From a virus, in IMG/VR virus record IMGVR_UViG_3300035698_022014, positions 11,602 to 75,601 of that record: DNA of 64,000 bases, one strand, 5' to 3'. The position numbers and the translations under genes were made by a program. Shown one piece after another: positions 23,710 to 63,848 of the stretch (positions are counted from its first letter, which is position 1; the number at the start of each line of letters is the position of its first letter). The notes beneath the pieces were generated by a model. That model was not told the origin of the DNA. It did not search any database and saw nothing but the letters and a program-made list of their open reading frames with translations.

Positions 23710-24354
23710 TTATCTATCGACATTTTCCATGTCGAGCTCTGCACGCATAATCGCTTGCATACGAAGAACATTAGCCACAACGTCAATACTCGAGTCTGCT
23801 TTTACATAAATGCTTTTCCAATATTCTTCATCGTTAATTGGTGTCATGTCGAGCTTGGGGAGATTGAACTCAAACTTCGAATCAATGAATGTTGACATGT
23901 CACGCGACTTCCAACGAGGAAGATGTTCGCGGATCACACTTTCTTTCTTTGAGTCGCAAAACAGACGCCACAAGATTGCTGCATCATCCATACTATTCCA
24001 CGACCACCAAAGATCAATTCTGCCATGCGGCAGAAGATAATTTACGAACTCTCTTGTGAATTCGTCTATTGTAAGATCTTTAGAATGTGGTTTCAACGTC
24101 CTTTCGATGATCGCTTTTGGTTGGGATTTCCAAAACTCGACCCCGTCTGATGCTGCTAGATATCCACGATCTTTTTGGTCAGCGATGCTAAGCTTGAATC
24201 GTTTGATACTCGAATATGCTGATTTTGTAGTGTACGGAGAAGTCGATACCATTGTTTTTGTATCAACCACAGCAACAGAGCAGTCCAATACAATACAATT
24301 CTCGGGATGGTAACCAAGCATTGAGAAATCTATGAACAGAAACTTATCCTTCAT
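23710..24354 (-). CDS. DexA-like 3'-5' exonuclease with an atypical active site
   Basis: FIDFSMLG, FWKSQP, W.....D..IL, W..RD..T pattern of the T4 DexA family. Confidence 0.65.
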   Translation of the reverse strand: MKDKFLFIDFSMLGYHPENCIVLDCSVAVVDTKTMVSTSPYTTKSAYSSIKRFKLSIADQKDRGYLAASDGVEFWKSQPKAIIERTLKPHSKDLTIDEFTREFVNYLLPHGRIDLWWSWNSMDDAAILWRLFCDSKKESVIREHLPRWKSRDMSTFIDSKFEFNLPKLDMTPINDEEYWKSIYVKADSSIDVVANVLRMQAIMRAELDMENVDR

Positions 24355-24877
24355 TGGACGTACCTGTTTTGTATAAATCAAGTTCCATCTGCTTCGTTGT
24401 GCCGTTCTTTGTGCGTCCATAGTCGCCGTCATACATCTTCAACGCTTCTGCCTCAAACAACACAAATTGAGCAATTCGAGTACCTTGTTTGACTCTGATA
24501 GGGCCTGTTGTAACATGCAGTGCACCGCCAACATTCCCACTATATCCCGTATCATAAACACCTGACGTGATGAACACTCCATTACGATTGAACGAGGAAC
24601 GAATTACCAACCACCCTGCCTCACCGTCCCCAATGGTGACATCGCTACTCATTGCGACGTCATATACACCAATGTGCAGGTTAAAATAGCCATCATCATC
24701 AACCTCTACATCAATGCGATCACGGTGCAGTTTTTTATCCTCATCAATCACGAAAATTGTGGGTGACAAAGCAATAACTCTGTCCAATCGCATGTCGACC
24801 GCATTGGAGCTTATCATCTCTACATCAACGTTGGTCGCAGTACTGTTGTTTTGCTCGCTAGCTATGTGTCTCATCAT
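24344..24877 (-). CDS. dCTP deaminase/dUTPase-fold protein
   Basis: AVDMRL, RSSFNRNG, YDTGYSG, GTRIAQ, YDGDY. Confidence 0.75.
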   Translation of the reverse strand: MMRHIASEQNNSTATNVDVEMISSNAVDMRLDRVIALSPTIFVIDEDKKLHRDRIDVEVDDDGYFNLHIGVYDVAMSSDVTIGDGEAGWLVIRSSFNRNGVFITSGVYDTGYSGNVGGALHVTTGPIRVKQGTRIAQFVLFEAEALKMYDGDYGRTKNGTTKQMELDLYKTGTSNEG

Positions 24878-25224
24878 GGTTGCTTACGCTCCTTGTCTGT
24901 AAAATGTGTTAGAAGGATTATGTAATGCATCGACTTGAGAAGGTCCTTCCGGTTGATACCTTCTTTACGTCCAAGTCTCATCAGATACTTGATGGCTGTC
25001 CCTTGACACATTTCACTGGCAATGTTCAATGATTCCCACACATCGATTGTTTGTATCTCCTCCTTACCAACATAGTGTTGAGAATAAGTACTTGCGACGT
25101 ACTCTCCTAAGTCACGGAGTATTTCTTGCTCACTAAACTTATATTTGATAGTAGACGTATCACTTTGTGGGCTGACTGTCGTCTCAACTTTCGTCTGGCA
25201 GGGGTTATCTAATTTATCTCGCAA
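24874..25224 (-). CDS. DUF3310-like protein
   Basis: TY.QHY, G.AIKYL.R.GRK.G....DLLK..HY; probable TTG start at 25224. Confidence 0.7.
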   Translation of the reverse strand: MRDKLDNPCQTKVETTVSPQSDTSTIKYKFSEQEILRDLGEYVASTYSQHYVGKEEIQTIDVWESLNIASEMCQGTAIKYLMRLGRKEGINRKDLLKSMHYIILLTHFTDKERKQP

Positions 25225-26083
25225 AGTCAGTCTCCATGTTAATAAGGTTGTCGATGTAATCGCAATTCGTCTTTGCAAGATCGATCAGGGTCGAATCAGT
25301 GCACACTGTATCAAAATGTACCTCGGGCTCATACTTGCCATTCACCAATCCTGAAGGACTGTTGTCAAATCCAATGTTGTTCAATCCTGCCCACACAGCA
25401 GCAGAGCTATCCCACGTGTTGATATACCCAAGGTGATCTTTGACCAGAGATATTTCATTAGGACCGTCGATCATTCCAAGCATGTGTACACGCTTGTTGT
25501 TGTCTTGGATCTTTTGTACAATCCCACGATCAACAAGGATGTTCAGAAAGTGCCATCTGGAAAGAAACCGTTGAAGCTTATTACCTTGCTCTACGCCATA
25601 TGCATTCGGTATAGCAAGAATGGACACTCCAATGTAATCTACGTGTCTAGATTCAGCGGCCCATGCAAATCCATCGATTAGATCTTCGATGTCGCCAACA
25701 TTCGACTGTGGGACAAAGAATGTCCCAAACCCACCATCCCTGATTTCTCGACTAGTTTCAACGGCTTTGTCAATTGTTTTTTGACCTGGCTCAGCAGGAT
25801 AGTCCGACATTACAATGTAATCAGCACTGACTGTTGTACCCATCTCTACAAGTTTAGACGAAGGATACATAGGCGACCCTTGCTTGAACATCTCAAACCC
25901 GCCATTGTCAAGAATTGTCACACTCTCAGGATTCTCAAACTTTTCGTCCCCATACCACTGTGCATAACGCGGATCTGATTCGACAAGATGTGCCAACACG
26001 AGATGGGTCTTTCTTCCTTTAGCAAAGTTGTCGAGGTGGGGAGTGGGTGTAATGTGGCAAAAGTCTGTCATGCAGTTCTCCAT
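25214..26083 (-). CDS. TGT-fold transglycosylase-like protein, candidate DpdA (inserts 7-deazaguanine into DNA)
   Basis: ILDNGGFE, SDYP, VPQ, VHMLG, WDSS motifs in TGT/DpdA order; clustered with folE/queD/queE. Confidence 0.6.
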   Translation of the reverse strand: MENCMTDFCHITPTPHLDNFAKGRKTHLVLAHLVESDPRYAQWYGDEKFENPESVTILDNGGFEMFKQGSPMYPSSKLVEMGTTVSADYIVMSDYPAEPGQKTIDKAVETSREIRDGGFGTFFVPQSNVGDIEDLIDGFAWAAESRHVDYIGVSILAIPNAYGVEQGNKLQRFLSRWHFLNILVDRGIVQKIQDNNKRVHMLGMIDGPNEISLVKDHLGYINTWDSSAAVWAGLNNIGFDNSPSGLVNGKYEPEVHFDTVCTDSTLIDLAKTNCDYIDNLINMETDFAR

Positions 26084-26096
26084 GTTGTAAATACAA

Positions 26097-26128
26097 ACAA
26101 GCGGAGATCATCAATGCTCTCCGCTTGT
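26097..26128. repeat. 11-bp inverted repeat (intergenic hairpin)
   Basis: ACAAGCGGAGA / TCTCCGCTTGT. Confidence 0.7.
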
Positions 26129-26137
26129 CAATTCTGG

Positions 26138-26521
26138 TTATTGGTAGATTGAAGTAGAGCCGTTCTCGCCATCTTCAGATATTTCGATGTGGATACCACG
26201 GTCAGGATATCGCGCTGATATCTTCTCTGCAAGGTCATCAGAAATCATCTCACAGCTTTTGTAGTCTAACTGCAAGGCACCGTCACCATACAACGATTCG
26301 AGCCAACGTTTGAATTGAATAAATTCAATGTCACGATCGTTGTGAAAGACGTCAATAGCCACTTTGATATGAAAAATGTGACGGTGTGGATAGCCCAAAA
26401 AGCTGACATCGTACTCATCACCTGTAGCGAGTTTTGGATCAGTCAGCGCAGCTGGATATTTGTGGACACCTTCTCGCTGAAACTTTACCCAAATACGGTT
26501 TGTAATTTTACTTAGCATCAT
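26138..26521 (-). CDS. QueD-like T-fold paralog, candidate DpdL (CDG decarboxylase)
   Basis: LGYPHRHIF (LxxxHRHxF), DRDIEFI, SCEM, SEDGENG. Confidence 0.65.
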   Translation of the reverse strand: MMLSKITNRIWVKFQREGVHKYPAALTDPKLATGDEYDVSFLGYPHRHIFHIKVAIDVFHNDRDIEFIQFKRWLESLYGDGALQLDYKSCEMISDDLAEKISARYPDRGIHIEISEDGENGSTSIYQ

Positions 26522-26593
26522 ACATCTCCATTATATAGAAAATGATGCAGGACAGAACCTACATCATTTTGATTATCGTTCGTCGGTTTGTTA

Positions 26594-26848
26594 TTAGTCG
26601 ATTTGCGTAACAGGAACCATGGTCATTCCTTGGTTGTTGTCAACTTCAACTTTTGCATAAGATCTGCCGCCGCGGTTCTCAAGACCTTTATAACGGCCAG
26701 TTGTTTTGACACCCTTGGTGTTTGTAAAGGATACAGGATCACCTTTTTTCATCTTTTGCACACGCTTTTTAGCTTTGTCATATTCTGCAGGCGCGTCCTC
26801 GGAAAGCTTGACTTTGATTGATTCTTCGATAAGTTGTTTGATTGACAT
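26594..26848 (-). CDS. Small basic late protein, possible internal head protein
   Basis: CATAAATA upstream (26890-26897); N-terminus MSIKQLIEE. Confidence 0.55.
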   Translation of the reverse strand: MSIKQLIEESIKVKLSEDAPAEYDKAKKRVQKMKKGDPVSFTNTKGVKTTGRYKGLENRGGRSYAKVEVDNNQGMTMVPVTQID

Positions 26849-26908
26849 GTGTATTTCTCCTGTCGTTTGACTACATTAGCATTCTTGTCTATTTATGTGA
26901 AAACTACA

Positions 26909-27139
26909 CTACACTACACGGTTATCTGGAAACAGTGCAAGCTGTGCTGCAATCCGGTCAAGTTCATTGGGAGTAGAGGCTTTGCGGATTGTAGACTGAA
27001 AGCGTTTGACGTTTTGGCTATTCTCGCCTTTAGCGACAAATTCTTTCACAGCTTTCAAGAGAATCTGTTGTTTTTCGTCTGCTGATTGTGCTGCCCATAC
27101 TTTTTTTGCTACGTCGCTGTAATCATTCAGAGTTTTCAT
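26909..27139 (-). CDS. Hypothetical protein
   Basis: ATGA-coupled to the upstream ORF. Confidence 0.55.
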   Translation of the reverse strand: MKTLNDYSDVAKKVWAAQSADEKQQILLKAVKEFVAKGENSQNVKRFQSTIRKASTPNELDRIAAQLALFPDNRVV

Positions 27140-27543
27140 TCGATATGTCCTTTGGTTGATGCTTCATGATACCATTTATAGCGACGAAAGTCAACACTGG
27201 TACTCATGAATGTAGGAAGATTATCACAATAAAGTATCCTATCACCTCCTTTTTTGAGATAGCCTTTTAAGATTTTTGTGTCACACCATGCCATCCATTG
27301 GTGTGAATTGTCAACAAAGAACATTCGATGTGTATTGACAGGTTCAAGTAATTTGTCATTGAGCATGACACAACCTCCTGAATTGAATGGAACGACAGTG
27401 CCTGTATAACCATTTGACCACTTCGGGTTCTTGAATCTTATCGTGTTGTCACCTGTTCTGTAGCATTCCCATCTCCATTTGATAATTGCATATACTGCAG
27501 TCTTTACTGCACCATCCAATTGTCGATCAACCAATTCTTCCAC
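27136..27543 (-). CDS. Hypothetical protein
   Basis: GAAGGA RBS, GTG start, operon context. Confidence 0.55.
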   Translation of the reverse strand: MEELVDRQLDGAVKTAVYAIIKWRWECYRTGDNTIRFKNPKWSNGYTGTVVPFNSGGCVMLNDKLLEPVNTHRMFFVDNSHQWMAWCDTKILKGYLKKGGDRILYCDNLPTFMSTSVDFRRYKWYHEASTKGHIE

Positions 27544-27559
27544 AATTATGTTCCTTCGA

Positions 27560-29271
27560 TTATTTTGTATACTTCAACTTTCCACAATCATACACCTTTA
27601 AAAACCCATGATCAAGTGCGTTCTGATGCTCTGTCAATTCGGGACAAAAAGTGTCAGGATATTTTGCTTGGAGTTTAGCCCTTGTCATTTGTCTCCGAGG
27701 GATTCTCCTCTTTGTAGCTCTACAGTAGTAAGTGTAATCTGGTTTTGTCTGATGAGCCAGATTCATCCCCGACTTTTGATATATGTTGTTTTCAAAATCA
27801 GTCCACAACAAATCAGCATACGTGTAGACGTTAGTGACATTTGACATTATTTTTGATAGTCCACCCACAACAGGGAGTTTTGACGCAAATCTTGTAAGGT
27901 CGTGACTGTCACCATACCGTTTAAATGTCGCAACAGAAACCAACTGACCCTCATGCTCGAGGCCTATGTTGAAAGAGTGATTGACATGCCCTTGAATGTG
28001 ATGATGCTCGAGAAACTCCTTCAATCAACATCATATACTACTTTTGTCTTTCTTGCCCCTATAGATGTGTCTGATGGCTCCAAAAGAGACATGATTTTTC
28101 GTCGGATTAGATCTGGACCATCTCTTAGATCATCTTCAAATAGGTGGATCAATCTTATGCCATTGTGTGCAGCATCTTTCTTTTTGTCTAAATGATAATT
28201 TGTAGGTTTGAATTTCTCAGAATGCCAATAACAACCGTTTATTTCAAACCCTATGTTATAATCAGGGAGAAAGATATCAATCTCCTTGCGGTCACTTAAC
28301 AATGTTCTATCATTGAATATAGGGGAATAATCGGCTAGCCATCCACTAACTAAATGCTCGTAGGATGAAGGTTGTCCAATTCCCTTTCTCAGAATGTCGA
28401 AACTATCAAGCATCTCTGCTACAATAGGGTGGCTACATCCTAGAAATTCGCCCATTTGCTCGAGTGACATCGTTTTATAAAGTTCCTCCAACAGAACTTT
28501 GTCGTAAAGACCTTCAATGTTTTCTCTTGGCGTTCCTTTTGTAAACACGCCCAGTTTGCGTATTTGTGTGTTGATTGTGTGATTCTTGACATTGTATTTT
28601 TTCGCAATTTGTGGTATTGTGTATTGCTCTCTTAGTTTACGTAGAGTATCAGCACTCTGTATATCTATATGAATCTCTACATGCGTGTTTCTTTTTGTGT
28701 CTTCTCCAGACTGTTTAATAATGTCTGATGCTGTCTGAATGCTACAGCCAATTTGTTTTGAGCATTGTGTAACATTAGAACCGCTATGCCACTGTTTCAA
28801 TATCTGTGTTTTGACACTCTCTGTATCGAACTTAAACTTGTCAAACTTTTTGTACTTTTTGGCCCACTTGGTTACAGTAGAGGGTGCGTGTCCTGTAATT
28901 GCTGATATTCTAACAATTGTCTCGCACGTATCGAATAGGATAGGATCGAAAGGGATTGATTTAATTGCAACAAGATTGCTAATTCTCACAAACCTTCGAA
29001 CAGAATCAACTGGAACCTCTAACCTATCTGCAACGACTCTACAATTGATAACTCCACTAATATAATCGTCCTGAAACTCACAGAACCTACGCGTGACAAT
29101 ATCATAGAATGTCTCTTTCAAGGTTACACCCCAACGATCTGCAAGCTCCTGCACAGACGAGGATGATACGCCGTACGTATTTGCAATGGAAGAGAAGCTC
29201 TCCCCTGAATCAATTAGATCCTGAAAAGAGCTTCTAGTAAGAACAGACGTAAGTGTTCCTCTCTTAGACAC
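27560..29271 (-). pseudogene. Hef-like homing endonuclease broken into two ORFs (28021-29271 and 27560-28024)
   Basis: HTH-like repeats, EIDIFLP..IGFEINGCYWHS, GIRLIHLFED; the usual continuation KEFL..HHIQG...VVGG.SK...YAD...VYDCG lies in the -1 frame. Confidence 0.75.
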
Positions 29272-30602: not shown

Positions 30603-31487
30603 TTACGCTAAACTAGCATAGAGGTGGATCTGAAGATTGAGAACGTAACCATGTTCGATGCAGTATTGTGCTGCATATTCATGATTGCGTTGATTTGCAC
30701 TCATGTCCAACAATCCAGGTTCCCAGAAGCTAATCACCTCATCGACTGTAGATCTTTCTCCGATCTCAATTCTGTTTGCTCCACTGTTCCGCAACTCCTT
30801 ACTCTTTATTGGCTCGTCGTTGTATACGTTCATTGGACTGATGTAGATTGGCTTGTTTGTCTTTTTGTGCTATTCTTGTGCCCACTCTGGGATTGAGCTG
30901 TATGGACTGTCCGGATCCGCTTCCATCACGAACTTCAAACAATCTGCATCGATCATGTTGTCTTTGTGTGGTTTGATGTACTTGCCCATCATTCCACCCT
31001 TCTCAATGCACTTTGGACTCATAACCAAAGTCGTTGTTTTCGGAATGCTTGCTTGATGAACGATCCCATTAGACTCGATTTGAGTATTCTTAAATACCTT
31101 ATTCATCCGTTCCAACAGCGGTCCAATATTCTTCTGTAAGAGAGGTTCGCCACCCGTCATTACAAGAACCATTTGCTTTTTAATTCCCAGAACCGGATCA
31201 TGCAAAGTCCAATTAGGACGATTTATTCCTTTGTCTGAATAGAATTTGTCTATTGCTGTTTCTATGTGAGCATCAATCTCATCGAACGTCATCCAATCAC
31301 CATCATCAAAGAACGTGTCACAAAAACTACATGCTAGATTACATTTTGCTAATCTAACAAAGAAAGCTGGTTCACCTCGGAACGGCCCTTCTCCTTGTAA
31401 AGTCATGAACATCGATGTGACGAATAATTTGTGTTCTTCTACGTCCTTAAAATATTTCTGTCCTACTATCTCGTTTTGCCCAAACAT
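30603..31487 (-). pseudogene. queE: 7-carboxy-7-deazaguanine synthase QueE interrupted by one in-frame TAG (30870-30872)
   Basis: TLQGEGP, CNLACSFCDT radical-SAM motif, TGGEP, ESNG, SPK; the same frame continues past TAG to the conserved LNLQIHLY end. Confidence 0.85.
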
Positions 31488-31645: not shown

Positions 31646-32233
31646 TTAGGATCCAAGACGCTCAATCGCATCGCGTGGCGCTTCCCAATCCCACCGCGAT
31701 TTGATAGGAAGAGTTTCATGGCCACTGTCAATCTTACTGTTTGCATCTGCAAAGGCTGTTTGTTTATCTACTTCGCACATTGAATCGTTGCGGTTGTGCT
31801 CATATACACGTACGCGCTCTACGTAACAGCGTCCGTCCGTTACCTTATATACGTAATGGTTGACGTGTTCCCAGATAAACAGTGAGCTCATTTCCATAGA
31901 TACGCCGCTTGGCAATACTCGCAACGTGCCAAGTATGCCACCAGGTGCTGTCAGTTCAGACGTGATTTGTCCAAGTCTCGGATCGTCGGCAGGAAGGACT
32001 GTGACATGATCGAAGTAGTATTCGAGGAACTGTTTGACAGGACCAAGTTCGCCAAACGGAACGATCCATCCATGTTGATCAATTTCTCCTGCAAATGTAA
32101 ACTCAACTTCACGATCATATCCGTGAACACTTGCACAGTCGCCAGGTGTCCCGTCAGGATTCTTGTCAAAATATTGTGCATGACCACATGGAAGGTACTT
32201 AAATACCTTCGTCGCCTTAATCTGTATTGCCAT
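31646..32233 (-). CDS. queD: 6-carboxy-tetrahydropterin synthase QueD
   Basis: GHAQ, CASVHGY, FDH, SME, VYEH..N. Confidence 0.88.
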   Translation of the reverse strand: MAIQIKATKVFKYLPCGHAQYFDKNPDGTPGDCASVHGYDREVEFTFAGEIDQHGWIVPFGELGPVKQFLEYYFDHVTVLPADDPRLGQITSELTAPGGILGTLRVLPSGVSMEMSSLFIWEHVNHYVYKVTDGRCYVERVRVYEHNRNDSMCEVDKQTAFADANSKIDSGHETLPIKSRWDWEAPRDAIERLGS

Positions 32234-32240
32234 TGTAATT

Positions 32241-32293
32241 ACTCCTTTGATAGTCGGTCGGAGTGTTTAGAGAGGGTCGATCCGTAGTCCTCT
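32241..32293 (-). promoter_or_regulatory. Candidate preQ1-I-like pseudoknot with anti-SD upstream of queD
   Basis: AGAGG-ACUACGGAUCGAC-CCUCU-CUAAACAC-UCCG, then SD AAAGGAG. Confidence 0.5.
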
Positions 32294-32304
32294 TGTTTGA
32301 TCTA

Positions 32305-32763
32305 TTATACACCAACGCCGTAGTTGACATCAACAAAATTGTCGGAGATAGACGTGCCGTAATATCTATACCAACGAGGTTTAGATTGGATTCGTTCGAC
32401 GACTCTTGCTACATTCACAGCGAGATCTACACTGTTAGGAACCCAATCTTGCCACAGGCCCTCAGCTCGTTGAAACACTGTCCAATCTATCACCCTTTCT
32501 TCTGGTTTCATGTTGTAACCACGTTTACGCAACTCGGCAACGAGGCTATGGTACCTGTTAAAAAGATACAGGCCTTTGTCATAGTGAAAGGTTACGTGTC
32601 CCTTATTTAGCGTATAATTCTTAGGGATTCGTCCTTTGACTAGTCCACTTTTTGAGTCTAATGTGCGTCTCAGAGATGCATTGACCATAGGCAATTCCCT
32701 ATATTCAGCCATTGCATGTTGGTCTGTCAGTTTCGACGGAGGTATCACATTAATTCTTGTCAT
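32305..32763 (-). CDS. denV: Pyrimidine-dimer DNA glycosylase (endonuclease V)
   Basis: MTRINV...L.DQH..AEYRELP, YTL..GHV.F.YDK, KP.WYRYYG. Confidence 0.95.
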   Translation of the reverse strand: MTRINVIPPSKLTDQHAMAEYRELPMVNASLRRTLDSKSGLVKGRIPKNYTLNKGHVTFHYDKGLYLFNRYHSLVAELRKRGYNMKPEERVIDWTVFQRAEGLWQDWVPNSVDLAVNVARVVERIQSKPRWYRYYGTSISDNFVDVNYGVGV

Positions 32764-32764
32764 T

Positions 32765-32950
32765 TTAACAATTCCAAAGGTAAGTAGTGTCCGAATACTG
32801 GGTTTTGAGAACGTCTTCTGACATTCTATCAATCATATTTGCTTCTCCTTGAATATCGCCTTCAAGTTGTACAGTGTCAACGTAATGCTCCATCGCTTTT
32901 TTGATGGTCTCAAGTTGGTTGGTGTCCATCTCAATGATAATTTTACTCAT
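32765..32950 (-). CDS. Hypothetical protein
   Basis: Short acidic ORF, AAGGGG RBS. Confidence 0.5.
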   Translation of the reverse strand: MSKIIIEMDTNQLETIKKAMEHYVDTVQLEGDIQGEANMIDRMSEDVLKTQYSDTTYLWNC

Positions 32951-33008: not shown

Positions 33009-34721
33009 TCAAGCGAAAAAGTCTTCCAATGTGTCCACCTTTGTGGCAGACCACCCCAATGAATCGAGAATGTTTTGAATTGGATCTAAGAACACTTTTG
33101 AGAACTGTTTCTCTCTATCAACGTAAATGTCTATTTCCATTTCTGTGGGAGGACTCTCAATGAACGAGATTATATTTTCGCGAAGAGGATTCGGCAGCTT
33201 CAAATACACAAACTTGATCTTGTCTCCTGACTGTATTAGGGGATAACGGTTAACGAGGTCATTATCCACAGTCCACTTGTTTGATAGAAGACAACCACGG
33301 ATGTGAATTGGACAGGCCTTCTTGTATATCGTTCTTGGATCTGCATAGCCATCCACGTCGTTGGTTCCAGAGACCTTGGCTATATGCTGAACAGGCAGAC
33401 TAAAAAACTCCTCCTTGAAGTCTCTTATAAATTCCTGAGTCTCAGATTCACCTTGTGTGACAATAATCTTAAACGCCTCAAAGAACTTCTTTCTACAAAT
33501 TTCAGGCGTAGAGCTTCTTGCTGCATCAATGCCCGTGACAGACACTTTTGGCTCATCATAGTGAACACCCTCGCTGTTAAGGACATTTAAGATGTATCGC
33601 TTCTTTGCAACAAAGATGGCTTTGTCTGCAATCTTTTCACGCTTCATTTTCATTGCGTTACGATATGCGCCCATTCTTTCAGCTAAATCATCATATGCAT
33701 CATCAAGCAACGGTTCAATCTTTTCTTTACATACCTTATCAATAAAAGACTCGCCTTGCTCGCGCGTAACATTGACGGTTCCAAACACCTTTTCTACAAG
33801 CGGACCAAGATTGACATACACGCTGTCTGTATCACAATACACACAATAATCAACGTCTGTTGTTTTGAGCACCTTGTTCACATACAAGTTAATTGCCTGT
33901 GCGGCCCATTTTGTGGATAGCTGTCCTGATGTTGTGATTCCCTCTGCCATGTCACTAATATAGTAGATGAAAAATGCATTGGCTGTACTCCCATAAAGTC
34001 CGTTCATTAGAATCTTGATAGACATTTGACTGTTGTGTAGCTGGGTTATCAGCTTTTTCAATCGTACAATTTCGTCTTTCGTTGTTGCTGTCTCAAGCTC
34101 AGACTCAGCTATAAGCATGTTTACTTTGATCTCTGCACGCTCGTCGTAGTAGCCTTGAATGATCTGAGGAATGATCCCCTCACGTTCTTTGGAGAAGCAC
34201 GCTCCATTTGCTGCTACTGCATATTTGGTTGTGTTTCTGTATTTCCCATCAAGTACAATCTGCTGTGACACATCTTCTTTTACGTTGTGTTGATACGTTT
34301 CTGGTGACATGTTGTATTGCATCATTAAGTGTGGATAGAGGCTGTTAAGGTCAAAGGACACAACCCAATCCTTCATTCCCTTTTGTGGATCCTTTACATA
34401 TCCACCAACGATACTCGTTGCACGTTGCTCAGATGTGGACTTGACGAATGGTACACGTCCTTGATCCATTAGAGCTCTGAATATAGTTGTGTCCCACAGT
34501 CCCACAGTTCCAAACGCCTCGTTAAAATTCACACCACTCTTGTATGCAACAGTAAACGACAGTGCGAGAAGGGCTGCTTGTTCTTCGAACATCTCAACAA
34601 GTCTAGTATCATATAAGTTGTAATCTAATCCAAGCTGATGATATTCGCGATCAGCAAGATCGGAATACTTGCGATGCATTTCAAGCAACTGCTTGTCTGT
34701 TAGGTCTTTCATATCTTCCAT
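33009..34721 (-). CDS. DNA polymerase gp43, C-terminal subunit (ExoIII + palm/fingers/thumb)
   Basis: DYNLYD, SFDLNSLYP, KILMNGLYG, YCDTDS, KKRY, C-terminal TLEDFF clamp-binding motif; GGAGA RBS before ATG 34721. Confidence 0.9.
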   Translation of the reverse strand: MEDMKDLTDKQLLEMHRKYSDLADREYHQLGLDYNLYDTRLVEMFEEQAALLALSFTVAYKSGVNFNEAFGTVGLWDTTIFRALMDQGRVPFVKSTSEQRATSIVGGYVKDPQKGMKDWVVSFDLNSLYPHLMMQYNMSPETYQHNVKEDVSQQIVLDGKYRNTTKYAVAANGACFSKEREGIIPQIIQGYYDERAEIKVNMLIAESELETATTKDEIVRLKKLITQLHNSQMSIKILMNGLYGSTANAFFIYYISDMAEGITTSGQLSTKWAAQAINLYVNKVLKTTDVDYCVYCDTDSVYVNLGPLVEKVFGTVNVTREQGESFIDKVCKEKIEPLLDDAYDDLAERMGAYRNAMKMKREKIADKAIFVAKKRYILNVLNSEGVHYDEPKVSVTGIDAARSSTPEICRKKFFEAFKIIVTQGESETQEFIRDFKEEFFSLPVQHIAKVSGTNDVDGYADPRTIYKKACPIHIRGCLLSNKWTVDNDLVNRYPLIQSGDKIKFVYLKLPNPLRENIISFIESPPTEMEIDIYVDREKQFSKVFLDPIQNILDSLGWSATKVDTLEDFFA

Positions 34722-34818
34722 AGAGTCTCCAAGATTGGTTATTTTTTTGTAGAAGGGGGAACCACAGTACAACGGAACATCAATTCTGACGCTTAACAGA
34801 AATTGTAATAGACGCAAA

Positions 34819-35865
34819 CTAGACAGAAAGTCCTCTACGTTGGATCTCTTCTAGTAAAACATCCCTTCGTTTTACATACGTTTCCCCATCTGTCAGTATA
34901 TCGTCGGGGAGGTCGTGTGATATTTTTACGTCCTTGGCCCCGTCAGAAATGAATCGGTGAGTATCGACTTTGTTTCCGTGTGCCTCATAAGAAAGCTTCT
35001 TTGTCCCCAGCACGACTGCAGCGACGTTGTCGAGCTTATATGACTGCATCGTGCCATATTTGTATCCAAACTTCTTAAACGTATTCATGTAATCAACGAT
35101 ACTGATACCACTAATTACATATGTTTTTTGCATCTTCTTGAACATCTCAAATGACCGTTCACGAACGTGGCCCCATGGTGAGAGTCGTTTGACAGCAGCC
35201 ATTCCGAGTATGTTTTCAATTCTCTTCACAATGTACGCGATGTCAAATAGCTCGACGTTCCATCCTGTGACGACATCTGGATAGTCACTGCACCACAAAT
35301 CGACAAACCTGTTCAGCATGTCGTACTCTGATTCACATTTGTGGTACTTGATTAATGACGGATCGATTCCTGTAACGGTCTTTTCTGGATCGTAGTCTTT
35401 TGTACCGAACATGTAGTAGTTGGATGATTTAGATGATTTAATTGCAACAGACGTAATCTCGTTGTCCGCATTCTCCATATCAGGCTTTTTCTTGCTGATA
35501 TCTACCTCAATATCGAAAGTAAAGATGTTGATCAGCGAAGGATCAAAATCAATTGTACCAGGATACATGTCATATGTGAAAGATGCGACGTAATTGGTAT
35601 TGCCACACATGATCATGTTTTGGACGTCTTTATATCTCTCTACAAATTCTGTTGCGCCCTTCATGCTATCACATTGGATAGACTTCAATGGCTTGTCACC
35701 TATTAACGATACGTGCGATGGCTTTTGATCCCCATTCTGTCGATCCTCTACATAGAATGTAGGCTGATATTTGACCTTCTTGTAGAACCGTTTGCCGTTG
35801 TCATAACCTGTCCATAGTATATCATTTCCATACCGTTCGATCTTTGTATACATCGTGCTGCTCAT
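34819..35865 (-). CDS. DNA polymerase gp43, N-terminal subunit (N domain + ExoI/II)
   Basis: FDIEV, TGWNVELFDI.Y, LSPWG, SYKLDNVA. Confidence 0.9.
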   Translation of the reverse strand: MSSTMYTKIERYGNDILWTGYDNGKRFYKKVKYQPTFYVEDRQNGDQKPSHVSLIGDKPLKSIQCDSMKGATEFVERYKDVQNMIMCGNTNYVASFTYDMYPGTIDFDPSLINIFTFDIEVDISKKKPDMENADNEITSVAIKSSKSSNYYMFGTKDYDPEKTVTGIDPSLIKYHKCESEYDMLNRFVDLWCSDYPDVVTGWNVELFDIAYIVKRIENILGMAAVKRLSPWGHVRERSFEMFKKMQKTYVISGISIVDYMNTFKKFGYKYGTMQSYKLDNVAAVVLGTKKLSYEAHGNKVDTHRFISDGAKDVKISHDLPDDILTDGETYVKRRDVLLEEIQRRGLSV

Positions 35866-62570: not shown

Positions 62571-62654
62571 GGGCAGGTGGCTGAGTGGTCGAAGGCGGGG
62601 GACTGTAAATCCCTTTTGAAAGACGCGGTGGTTCAAATCCATCCCTGCTCACCA
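62571..62654 (+). tRNA. tRNA-Tyr(GTA)
   Basis: Full cloverleaf, GGGGA-CTGTAAA-TCCCT anticodon arm, long variable arm, A73, encoded CCA. Confidence 0.92.
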
Positions 62655-62923
62655 GATACAATACAATACAACAAGAAAAGAGTTATCTCTGCATATAACA
62701 TATTTTGTTAGAGCGGCTTTGCTGCACAAATAATGAAAGTTTATAACTTGTTGTGTTGTTAAAAATTGGTACTGGATTTAATATTCGGTTGAATCGCACA
62801 TAGGCGAAAGCACAGTGTAGAGCCTACCACATTCACGACACTATATTCGAGATGCGGGAACTGCAGATGTCCGACAGCATAGATAAACACATAAACCTGG
62901 TAGTGTCGTGAATAATTAATAAC

Positions 62924-62959
62924 GGACCATTAGCTCAGTTGGTTAGAGCAGCGGACTTA
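62924..62959 (+). pseudogene. tRNA 5' half truncated in the anticodon loop
   Basis: GGACCAT-TA-GCTC-AGTTGGTTA-GAGC-A-GCGGA-CTT, followed directly by the endonuclease leader. Confidence 0.8.
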
Positions 62960-63035
62960 AATCTCTTTTTGTATAAATAATAGCGTGGATCTTGGCATAC
63001 CAAGATCCATCTACTCTAGAATGCAAAAAGAGATT
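62960..63035 (+). promoter_or_regulatory. Late promoter flanked by an anti-RBS pairing (homing endonuclease control region)
   Basis: AATCTCTTTTTG (62960-62971) pairs with CAAAAAGAGATT (63024-63035); TATAAATA at 62972-62979. Confidence 0.75.
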
Positions 63036-63040
63036 CCAAC

Positions 63041-63703
63041 ATGAAACTATTTATATGCTGCCATTGTGGTAGTGAGCGTAAGAATGTAAACTCGTGGAAA
63101 AATCACGAACGAACTTGTCCATCTAATTCAAGCCGAAAATACAAAAATGGTATGACTGGTAAAAAAGGATCTAATCAACATACTAAGGCCAAAGAGTTGG
63201 GCAAACCTAAACCAGAAGTGTCAACAGAAACGCGCAACAAAATTAGAAATTCCAATATTGACCGAAAGCATACTCAGCAAACCAAAGATAAAATATCAAA
63301 GGCAAGATTGAAATACCTTGCTGAAAATCCTGACAAGGTTCCTTACAAATTAAACCATTATAGCAAAGGCCCGTCATATCCTGAAAGATATTGGAAGAAA
63401 GTTTTTGATAAGTTAAGAATTGAATATGTCGAACAATACCGAATACACACCTATCAGTTAGACTTTGCCTTAGTAGAAGAAAAGATTGACATTGAAATAG
63501 ACGGAGAACAGCATTATCAAGACGAAAGAATAGTAAAGAGTGATAAGCGTAGAAACGAATATCTTGAAGGTCTAGGTTGGAAAATAATAAGAATTCGTTG
63601 GTCAGAATATAAAAAGCTGATTGACAAACAAGATAGAATAGCTTATGTTGCTAGAATATTAAACAAAATACGGACGGGTACCCAAGTGGACAAAGGGAAC
63701 TGA
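63041..63703 (+). mobile_element. Free-standing homing endonuclease (zinc finger + NUMOD3-like + DUF559/Vsr-like nuclease)
   Basis: C..C...H...C, KHTQQTKDKIS, YQLDFA...IEIDGEQH...D..R..YL...GW.I.RI.W; the last 10 codons overlap tRNA-Lys. Confidence 0.85.
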
Positions 63704-63755
63704 CTTTTAATCAGTCGCGTAAGCTTCGAGGGTTCGAATCCCTCCCCGTTCACCA
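63672..63755 (+). tRNA. tRNA with Lys(TTT) anticodon on a Tyr-type class II body
   Basis: GGACGGG/CCCGTTC acceptor, ACTGA-CTTTTAA-TCAGT, 12-nt variable region, GAGGG-TTCGAAT-CCCTC, ACCA. Confidence 0.88.
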
Positions 63756-63773
63756 CTTAACAGTTTAAATATT

Positions 63774-63848
63774 GCGCCAGTAGTTCAGTGGTAGAGCATC
63801 TTACTCTCAAACCGCGTGTCCTAGGTTCAAATCCTAGATGGTTCACCA
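63774..63848 (+). pseudogene. Chimeric tRNA-like sequence (nominal CTC anticodon) whose halves do not pair
   Basis: Good D and T arms and CCA, but acceptor GCGCCAG/ATGGTTC has 2 mismatches and anticodon stem TCTTA/ACCGC does not pair. Confidence 0.75.

Follow-up and report, generated by a model that had tools for sequence, protein, structure and literature searches.

The question raised by this locus is whether the short spacer in front of a viral queD gene carries a regulatory RNA and, if so, what such an RNA might sense and in which direction it would act. The window analyzed here, a stretch of 64,000 nucleotides, comes from an IMG/VR virus record of 75.6 kb with a completeness estimate of 36%. 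On its minus strand, the queD leader is formed by a 71-nt spacer (32304-32234) with a denV-like gene on one side and a gene of the PTPS/QueD family on the other. A preliminary description had pointed to a pseudoknot of preQ1-I shape in this leader, and the letters listed there are all found on the minus strand, at 32293-32231, exactly as written. The elements of the locus are the following.

32305-32832, minus strand: denV-like gene (Pyr_excise), upstream of the leader and bounding the 71-nt spacer.
32304-32333, minus strand: sigma-70-type promoter with -35 TTGATG (32333-32328), an 18-nt spacer and -10 TATAAT (32309-32304); 10 of 12 positions match the consensus.
32293-32289, minus strand: 5' strand of P1, AGAGG, pairing with CCUCU.
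32288-32285, minus strand: L1, ACUA; in the family, a consensus N-C-U precedes 0-9 variable nucleotides.
32284-32278, minus strand: 5' strand of P2, CGG(A)UCG, according to the family-model alignment; A32281 is bulged and the last three letters open the conserved UCRNC block.
32277-32276, minus strand: L2, AC, with C32276 immediately 5' of the P1 3' strand.
32275-32271, minus strand: 3' strand of P1, CCUCU, pairing with AGAGG.
32270-32261, minus strand: L3, CUAAACACUC, 10 nt, consisting of the A-rich tail (consensus N-U-A-A-A-Y-A-Y) and the opening UC of the UCYGN motif.
32264-32260, minus strand: anti-Shine-Dalgarno, ACUCC, complementary to GGAGU; C32260 is common to P2.
32260-32255, minus strand: 3' strand of P2, CGACCG, pairing with CGG(A)UCG according to the family-model alignment.
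32245-32241, minus strand: Shine-Dalgarno, GGAGU, 7 nt ahead of the start codon.
31646-32233, minus strand: queD, a PTPS-family gene of 195 aa under putative control of the leader (PF01242, 53.9 bits, E 2e-14).

The -10 hexamer of the queD promoter overlaps the stop codon of the denV-like gene, and the promoter position predicts a transcript start near 32297, about 4 nt ahead of P1. A look-up of RNA sequencing runs covering this stretch found none listed. The hairpin loop inside P1 is the 13-nt ACUACGGAUCGAC (32288-32276, minus strand), whose last letter is C. P1 is followed by the linker CUAAACAC (32270-32263, minus strand) and then by UCCG (32262-32259), and AAAGGAGU at 32248-32241 of the same strand is separated by 7 nt from the AUG (32233-32231). 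The minimum-energy fold of the leader holds P1 together with the ACUCC/GGAGU hairpin; since the stability of this single-sequence fold is not above that of shuffled sequence (z -0.01), the fold is uninformative either way.

Downstream of queD, the same strand carries a radical-SAM QueE-like gene, a phosphoribosyltransferase gene and folE, while a split family-B DNA polymerase gene and a gene for an SbcC-like ATPase are located upstream of the leader. The QueE-like gene (30603-31487, minus strand) appears as two ORFs of 205 aa and 76 aa, and its Pfam match covers the N-terminal radical-SAM stretch only. The polymerase (33009-35865, minus strand) is divided between two adjacent ORFs that encode its exonuclease (348 aa) and polymerase (602 aa) parts. 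At its distal end (24344-25278, minus strand), the same gene string carries a dCTP-deaminase/dUTPase-fold gene and a DUF3310 gene, and four ORFs neighboring them (25214-28024) have no Pfam match.

QueD relatives were collected at 40 loci from IMG/VR and at 80 loci from metagenomes, and their leaders share a common order. The 5' half consists of P1 (NNNGG/CCNNN), an L1 of N-C-U plus 0-9 nt, the 5-nt 5' strand of P2, a UC(A/G)NC block and the 3' strand of P1; the 3' half continues with N-U-A-A-A-Y-A-Y, UC(U/C)GN, the 5-nt 3' strand of P2, a stretch of 10-35 nt, the Shine-Dalgarno sequence and the AUG. Among unique elements, L1 mostly begins with ACU (80 cases), followed by UCU (20) and CCU (13). 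At about 40 metagenomic QueD loci, queD directly follows another gene, with neither a leader nor the element being present. Altogether, 243 distinct elements were collected from uncultured-phage contigs. The downstream gene belongs to the PTPS family for every element whose gene was read, representing five subfamilies with very different N-termini, and a PF01242 match was obtained for all seven downstream genes sampled. In 79 of 121 elements, a promoter with at least 10 of 12 matches to TTGACA-N16-18-TATAAT ends 3-14 nt, mostly 6-12 nt, before P1.

Both helices are conserved and covary in this family. P1 is paired to 96-97% (96.3% on alignment A6); its two GG/CC pairs closing the loop are invariant, and the middle pair on A6 appears as UA in 32, AU in 14 and CG in two sequences. 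P2 was assessed on the fixed-length and motif-anchored alignments A3, A6 and A7. A MAFFT alignment (A2) misaligned the 5' strand of P1 and an alignment from a P1-only model (A5) gapped the loop arbitrarily, and neither was used for this helix. Pairing amounts to 93.7% on A3 (19 sequences) and to 92.0% on A7, values that were reached by 0 of 500 shuffles in each case. On A6 (49 sequences), where P2 is set only by its position beside the conserved blocks and the alignment is, thus, blind to pairing, 75.5% of the P2 positions are paired as compared to 57.4% upon shuffling, with 48 versus 17 double-change cells and, again, 0 of 500 shuffles as high. The structure is a conserved H-type pseudoknot of preQ1-I shape which, judged by Rfam, lies outside standard preQ1-I membership.

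The covariation extends beyond the five P2 positions. Position 3 of UC(A/G)NC pairs with position 3 of UC(U/C)GN, as A:U at 44 and as G:C at seven of the protein-homology loci, and mixed combinations do not occur, although these loci could have yielded all four. On A6, the same loop-tail pair is AU in 43 and GC in six sequences, is never unpaired and adjoins an invariant C-G. Pattern scans of IMG/VR gave at least 120 stretches each for the combinations G..C and A..U, with P1 in 92 and 106, respectively, of those listed, as opposed to 20 stretches for A..C, none of them real, and 15 for G..U, none with P1. This exceptionless covariation strongly indicates that P2 extends through a U.C mismatch into the C-G and R:Y pairs, leaving two letters (N-C) for L2 and ten for L3. 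Four IMG/VR contigs (L379, L381, L384 and L387) have a conserved stretch in common whose match to the mixed A..C pattern is fortuitous and which is unrelated to the element; it contains neither an N-C-U L1 nor a Shine-Dalgarno sequence and looks like coding sequence.

The position of the U.C mismatch of most members is a U-A pair in the window. The family-standard register of P2 (ACGGA with CCGAC) does not pair here, while the register with bulged A32281 does, comprising C32284-G32255, G32283-C32256, G32282-C32257, U32280-A32258, C32279-G32259 and G32278-C32260. The preliminary description had instead drawn P2 as CGGA/UCCG. This complementarity is present (about -3.5 kcal/mol), but it was rejected as the conserved pairing, as UCYG is conserved regardless of the loop sequence and the family covariation favors CGG(A)UCG/CGACCG. 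CGGA/UCCG rather represents a rival register that competes for the same 5' strand of P2, and UCCG is an instance of the conserved UCYGN motif, the last two letters of which, together with the following A, make up the inner three P2 pairs in the window.

When 30 elements of the window's subtype from other phages were used, with the window excluded, to build a covariance model (R2), this model scored the site at 38.9 bits (E 1.9e-8); neither the window nor the entire 75.6-kb record contained another significant match. A second model (R1), built from A:U-type elements, gives the window only 15.5 bits, and the window belongs to the G:C type represented by R2. Four complete phage genomes of 208-462 kb contain exactly one copy of the element each. 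A 22-nt pattern for the window's subtype occurs in at least 120 stretches of IMG/VR, and P1 is perfect in 92 of the 120 listed. When the same pattern was run against 596 Gb of bacterial and archaeal genomes, the 120 matches listed included no real element. As far as found, the family is restricted to phage DNA. Blastn searches of GenBank phages with the locus and with two 66-nt elements gave no element, and model R2 had no match in ten cultured phages with a related QueD (RHph_I1_18, pf16, Pan1, Me-ZS1, RHph_X3_2, BcepGomr, Motura, phi13:1, BUCT-ZZ01 and R7M), so that neither search identified a cultured phage carrying the element. In those ten phages queD mostly resides inside an operon, where the leader is short or absent.

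The C immediately 5' of the P1 3' strand is kept in 120 of 121 unique elements and in 41 of 42 elements of the protein-homology set; the letter ahead of it is A, U or C in the family and A in the window. PreQ1-I riboswitches have a strictly conserved C at the same place, which pairs with the ligand and is preceded by U or A, and the roles of this C, of the G-C closing pair and of the A-rich L3 in the ligand pocket have been described (PMC11625349). As the phage elements have kept these three preQ1-I-like features, we infer that they bind a ligand.

The region between L3 and the start codon points to the way in which such binding might be transmitted. When this region was folded for 121 elements, the 3' part of the aptamer was almost always paired to the ribosome binding site in the minimum-energy structure. 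The Shine-Dalgarno sequence is located 10-35 nt past P2, and the knot contains a strand complementary either to it or to the start codon; no terminator was found after the element. In A:U-type members, the 3' strand of P2 together with AUC can pair with GAUG and the second codon, as exemplified by AAGUCAUC with GAUGACUU. This start-region pairing covaries, with a mean helix length of 6.03 compared to 5.36 +/- 0.06 for permuted start regions (0/500). In G:C-type members, the 3' region of P2 covaries with the Shine-Dalgarno sequence of the same leader (4.52 versus 3.96 +/- 0.07, 0/500), while pairing of the tail with the Shine-Dalgarno sequence, mostly a constant YUCC/GGAG, shows no significant covariation in this type (4.87 versus 4.79, 41 of 500 shuffles). 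The 3' part of the knot can pair with the start site, with which it covaries, and formation of the knot should therefore free that site. The ON direction of the switch is, thus, inferred from competing pairings, and the ON-switch platform which the preliminary description had seen in the single leader gains comparative support. Within the window, the anti-Shine-Dalgarno helix and P2 are mutually exclusive because both use C32260. The overlap is small, consisting of this single nucleotide plus L3, and exclusivity therefore rests in part on a presumed docking of L3 in the knot. The two competing states are close in energy, with about -5.5 kcal/mol for the 5-bp anti-Shine-Dalgarno/Shine-Dalgarno helix and about -4.8 kcal/mol for the P2 duplex.

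General features of riboswitches are, thus, found together in these leaders: a conserved structured 5'-UTR in front of one gene family in distant genomes, with covarying helices that compete with expression signals. We consider it probable that the elements represent a phage-restricted family of pseudoknot riboswitches in which a ligand-stabilized knot turns translation of queD on. From an early sigma-70-type promoter, transcription would start about 4 nt ahead of P1, and the first 40 nt or so would fold into an H-type pseudoknot with a 5-bp P1, a 4-nt L1, a singly bulged 6-bp P2, a 2-nt L2 whose last letter is the near-invariant C beside the P1-closing G-C, and a 10-nt A-rich L3. In the alternative fold, ACUCC at the border of L3 and P2 would pair with the Shine-Dalgarno GGAGU. 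By analogy to preQ1-I, a small ligand with a guanine-like pairing face may stabilize the knot at the junction of P1 and P2, candidates being a 7-deazaguanine or a pterin, for instance dihydroneopterin triphosphate, the substrate of PTPS. Binding would then pull the anti-Shine-Dalgarno strand off the Shine-Dalgarno sequence and, by this, allow translation of queD. A similar ON logic, in which the ligand-stabilized aptamer frees the ribosome binding site, is known from the translational adenine riboswitch of Vibrio vulnificus add, where a strand of the aptamer doubles as anti-Shine-Dalgarno; the folds are, however, unrelated, the aptamer of the latter being a three-way junction and that of the phage element a pseudoknot.

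The structure, its position at the 5' end and the competition with the start site do not by themselves require a ligand. It might therefore be argued that the leader is conserved as a protein operator, for autoregulation by PTPS or for a phage translational repressor, or as a 5'-end structure that sets either mRNA stability or, via temperature or folding kinetics, the rate of translation. Protein operators and start-site hairpins on early mRNAs occur in T4-type phages and provide a precedent, and the strict association with PTPS genes would suit autoregulation by the PTPS protein as well as regulation by a metabolite. However, the near-invariant unpaired C, the G-C closing pair and the A-rich L3 are found exactly where preQ1-I binds its ligand (PMC11625349), and one RNA consensus precedes five PTPS subfamilies with completely different N-termini, which is more easily explained by a common metabolite than by protein-RNA contacts that co-evolved in each subfamily. 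A conserved leader structure acting without a small molecule thus appears rather unlikely, albeit the most serious of the alternatives.

The riboswitch reading leaves a question of direction, as an ON switch on a biosynthetic gene would be unusual if the ligand were the end product of the pathway. Feedback repression is the usual logic of biosynthetic genes and the one followed by all known preQ1 riboswitches (PMC11625349). One may therefore envisage a ligand switch wired OFF, in which the bound knot and the helix of anti-Shine-Dalgarno and Shine-Dalgarno coexist in a double pseudoknot, similar to the preQ1-III docking helix, and an end product, e.g. a 7-deazaguanine, represses queD. The window would be compatible with such a structure to the extent that P2 and the anti-Shine-Dalgarno strand have one nucleotide in common and that the 3' strand of P2 lies inside the loop of the anti-Shine-Dalgarno:Shine-Dalgarno hairpin, which is topologically possible. 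In A:U-type members, however, the 3' strand of P2 itself contributes 4 to 8 nt to the pairing with the start-codon region, and as the letters of P2 and those of the covarying start pairing are the same, the two helices cannot coexist. The same applies to many G:C-type members, for example where ACACU followed by CC pairs with GGAGU. A repressing double pseudoknot is accordingly regarded as improbable, and we continue to favor a knot that turns translation on.

The relation of this knot to catalogued RNAs was addressed by searches against Rfam 15. At gathering thresholds, the whole window yielded three tRNAs only and no riboswitch, and the region 32100-32450 matched no family at E values up to 10. 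The tRNA genes lie at the window end (62571-63845, plus strand) and score 57.5, 55.3 and 30.4 bits. A search with the preQ1-I model, a check proposed in the preliminary description, gave no match to PreQ1 (RF00522) in this region of the window at E values up to 10. The relative L013 matches this model at 12.9 bits, compared to a gathering threshold of 39, and over model positions 6-32 only, corresponding to P1 with its loop and the beginning of the A-rich tail; no PreQ1 match was obtained for the G:C-type relative L136. A hit of L136 to the DUF805 RNA (RF03081), based on a GUGG/CCAC hairpin with UAAAA and purine-rich sequence behind it, reached 12.2 bits versus a threshold of 51.1. This family has a different gene association and gave no match in 32100-32450 of the window at E values up to 10, and the kinship was rejected as noise. 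The queD-leader element, therefore, belongs to no RNA family catalogued in Rfam 15, and a full-text literature search, with most subscription papers outside its coverage, returned no description of the motif.

PreQ1-I riboswitches (RF00522) comprise types I-III, with examples from B. subtilis queC, T. tengcongensis, C. antarcticum and E. coli (reviewed in PMC11625349). The phage element resembles them as a small H-type pseudoknot that opens the mRNA of a que gene, with both P1 and P2 in the phages being backed by covariation. P1 has 5 bp, its loop-closing pair is the G-C that forms the pocket floor in preQ1-I, the near-invariant C directly precedes the P1 3' strand, although with A, U or C before it, and an A-rich L3 follows P1, with P2 formed between the P1 loop and the 3' tail. 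The extended P2 leaves an L2 of just two letters, 'NC', which reads 'AC' in the window and matches that of types II and III. Given this layout, the weak PreQ1 match of L013 and the fact that queD is a classic preQ1-I target, the element might be regarded as an ordinary, divergent preQ1-I riboswitch for preQ1 or preQ0. Several differences argue against this. The best PreQ1 score among the elements stays at 12.9 bits against the threshold of 39, with no match in the window or in the G:C-type relative, and the family is found in phage DNA only. L1 starts with N-C-U plus a variable insert and lacks the conserved U with which L1 of preQ1-I begins and reads N9 of the ligand. P2 spans 5-8 positions as opposed to 3-4 bp, among them a U.C mismatch and a C-G plus R:Y step that are both conserved. 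L3 of preQ1-I enters P2 after about 6-8 nt, while the phage L3 has 10 nt, with the A-rich N-U-A-A-A-Y-A-Y leading into the conserved UCYGN block that is absent from preQ1-I. Finally, preQ1-I riboswitches are OFF switches that have the Shine-Dalgarno sequence in or near the P2 3' strand, or a terminator; the phage P2 has no Shine-Dalgarno sequence inside, and the knot instead holds the anti-Shine-Dalgarno or anti-start strand, as suits ON wiring. It is thus very unlikely that the phage elements are standard sensors of preQ1 or preQ0. A chance resemblance within an AT-rich spacer, suggested by a single-sequence fold no better than shuffles, is refuted by the score of 38.9 bits (E 1.9e-8) against an independently built model and by 243 distinct homologous, covarying elements, and its probability is negligible.

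What the favored ON switch would sense may be approached through its gene context. Most members precede a lone PTPS gene rather than a deazaguanine cluster, with FolE, QueE and QueC not being detectable nearby. The signal is, thus, more likely connected with PTPS chemistry, in the form of a pterin or precursor, or with a guanine-like base in general than with the DNA-modification cluster of this phage. The same context gives no support to the control circuit for phage DNA modification that the preliminary description had drawn between this leader and a folE element, and neither a second copy of the family nor a known riboswitch was detected in the window by R1, R2 and Rfam. Genes that follow lone PTPS genes in relatives code for a phosphomannomutase, UvdE, a histidine phosphatase, a JmjC-like protein and an FAD/NAD oxidoreductase (L145, L215, L157, L140 and L172). 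A complete 208-kb relative, whose QueD is 97% identical to that of the window and which contains locus L002, has no QueC (PF06508) and no TGT (PF01702) according to Pfam. Its deazaguanine pathway is QueC-less, and a DpdA-like enzyme, if there is one, has diverged too far to be recognized by the Pfam model.

On this basis it might tentatively be hypothesized, as a possibility that we would not yet call probable, that the elements constitute a new, phage-only riboswitch class, in which a preQ1-I-like knot recognizes a guanine-faced metabolite other than preQ1 to turn on translation of PTPS/QueD. Candidate ligands for such a class would be dihydroneopterin triphosphate, another pterin, or CDG/7-deazaguanine. 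If this is true, RNA would allow phages to sense the purine or pterin status of the host directly as they commit to making deazapurines or pterins.

To our knowledge, very few phage riboswitches have been described, all of them copies of cellular classes, and we know of preQ1-I-type architecture from OFF switches only. The present family occurs in hundreds of uncultured phages, including those with complete genomes of 208-462 kb, and was found in viral DNA only, and it apparently puts ON logic on a preQ1-I-like architecture. A preQ1-I-like pseudoknot that falls outside preQ1-I would, if its ligand is indeed other than preQ1, amount to a new riboswitch class. The identity of the ligand would further explain the purpose of the lone PTPS genes, which are widespread and poorly understood in aquatic phages, and would, in the phage studied here, reveal the timing of the first committed step in a 7-deazaguanine pathway that lacks QueC. 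The RNA of about 40 nt is easy to synthesize and offers testable positions in the candidate specificity base C32276, the covarying G32278:C32260 pair and the competing anti-Shine-Dalgarno strand. With regard to the candidate specificity base, the only natural variant with U in place of the near-invariant C (UCACU) is present at L009:2934-2982 and also in L010 and L011. The equivalent change from C to U alters ligand specificity in preQ1-I, and the U variant could be either a decayed copy or a specificity variant.
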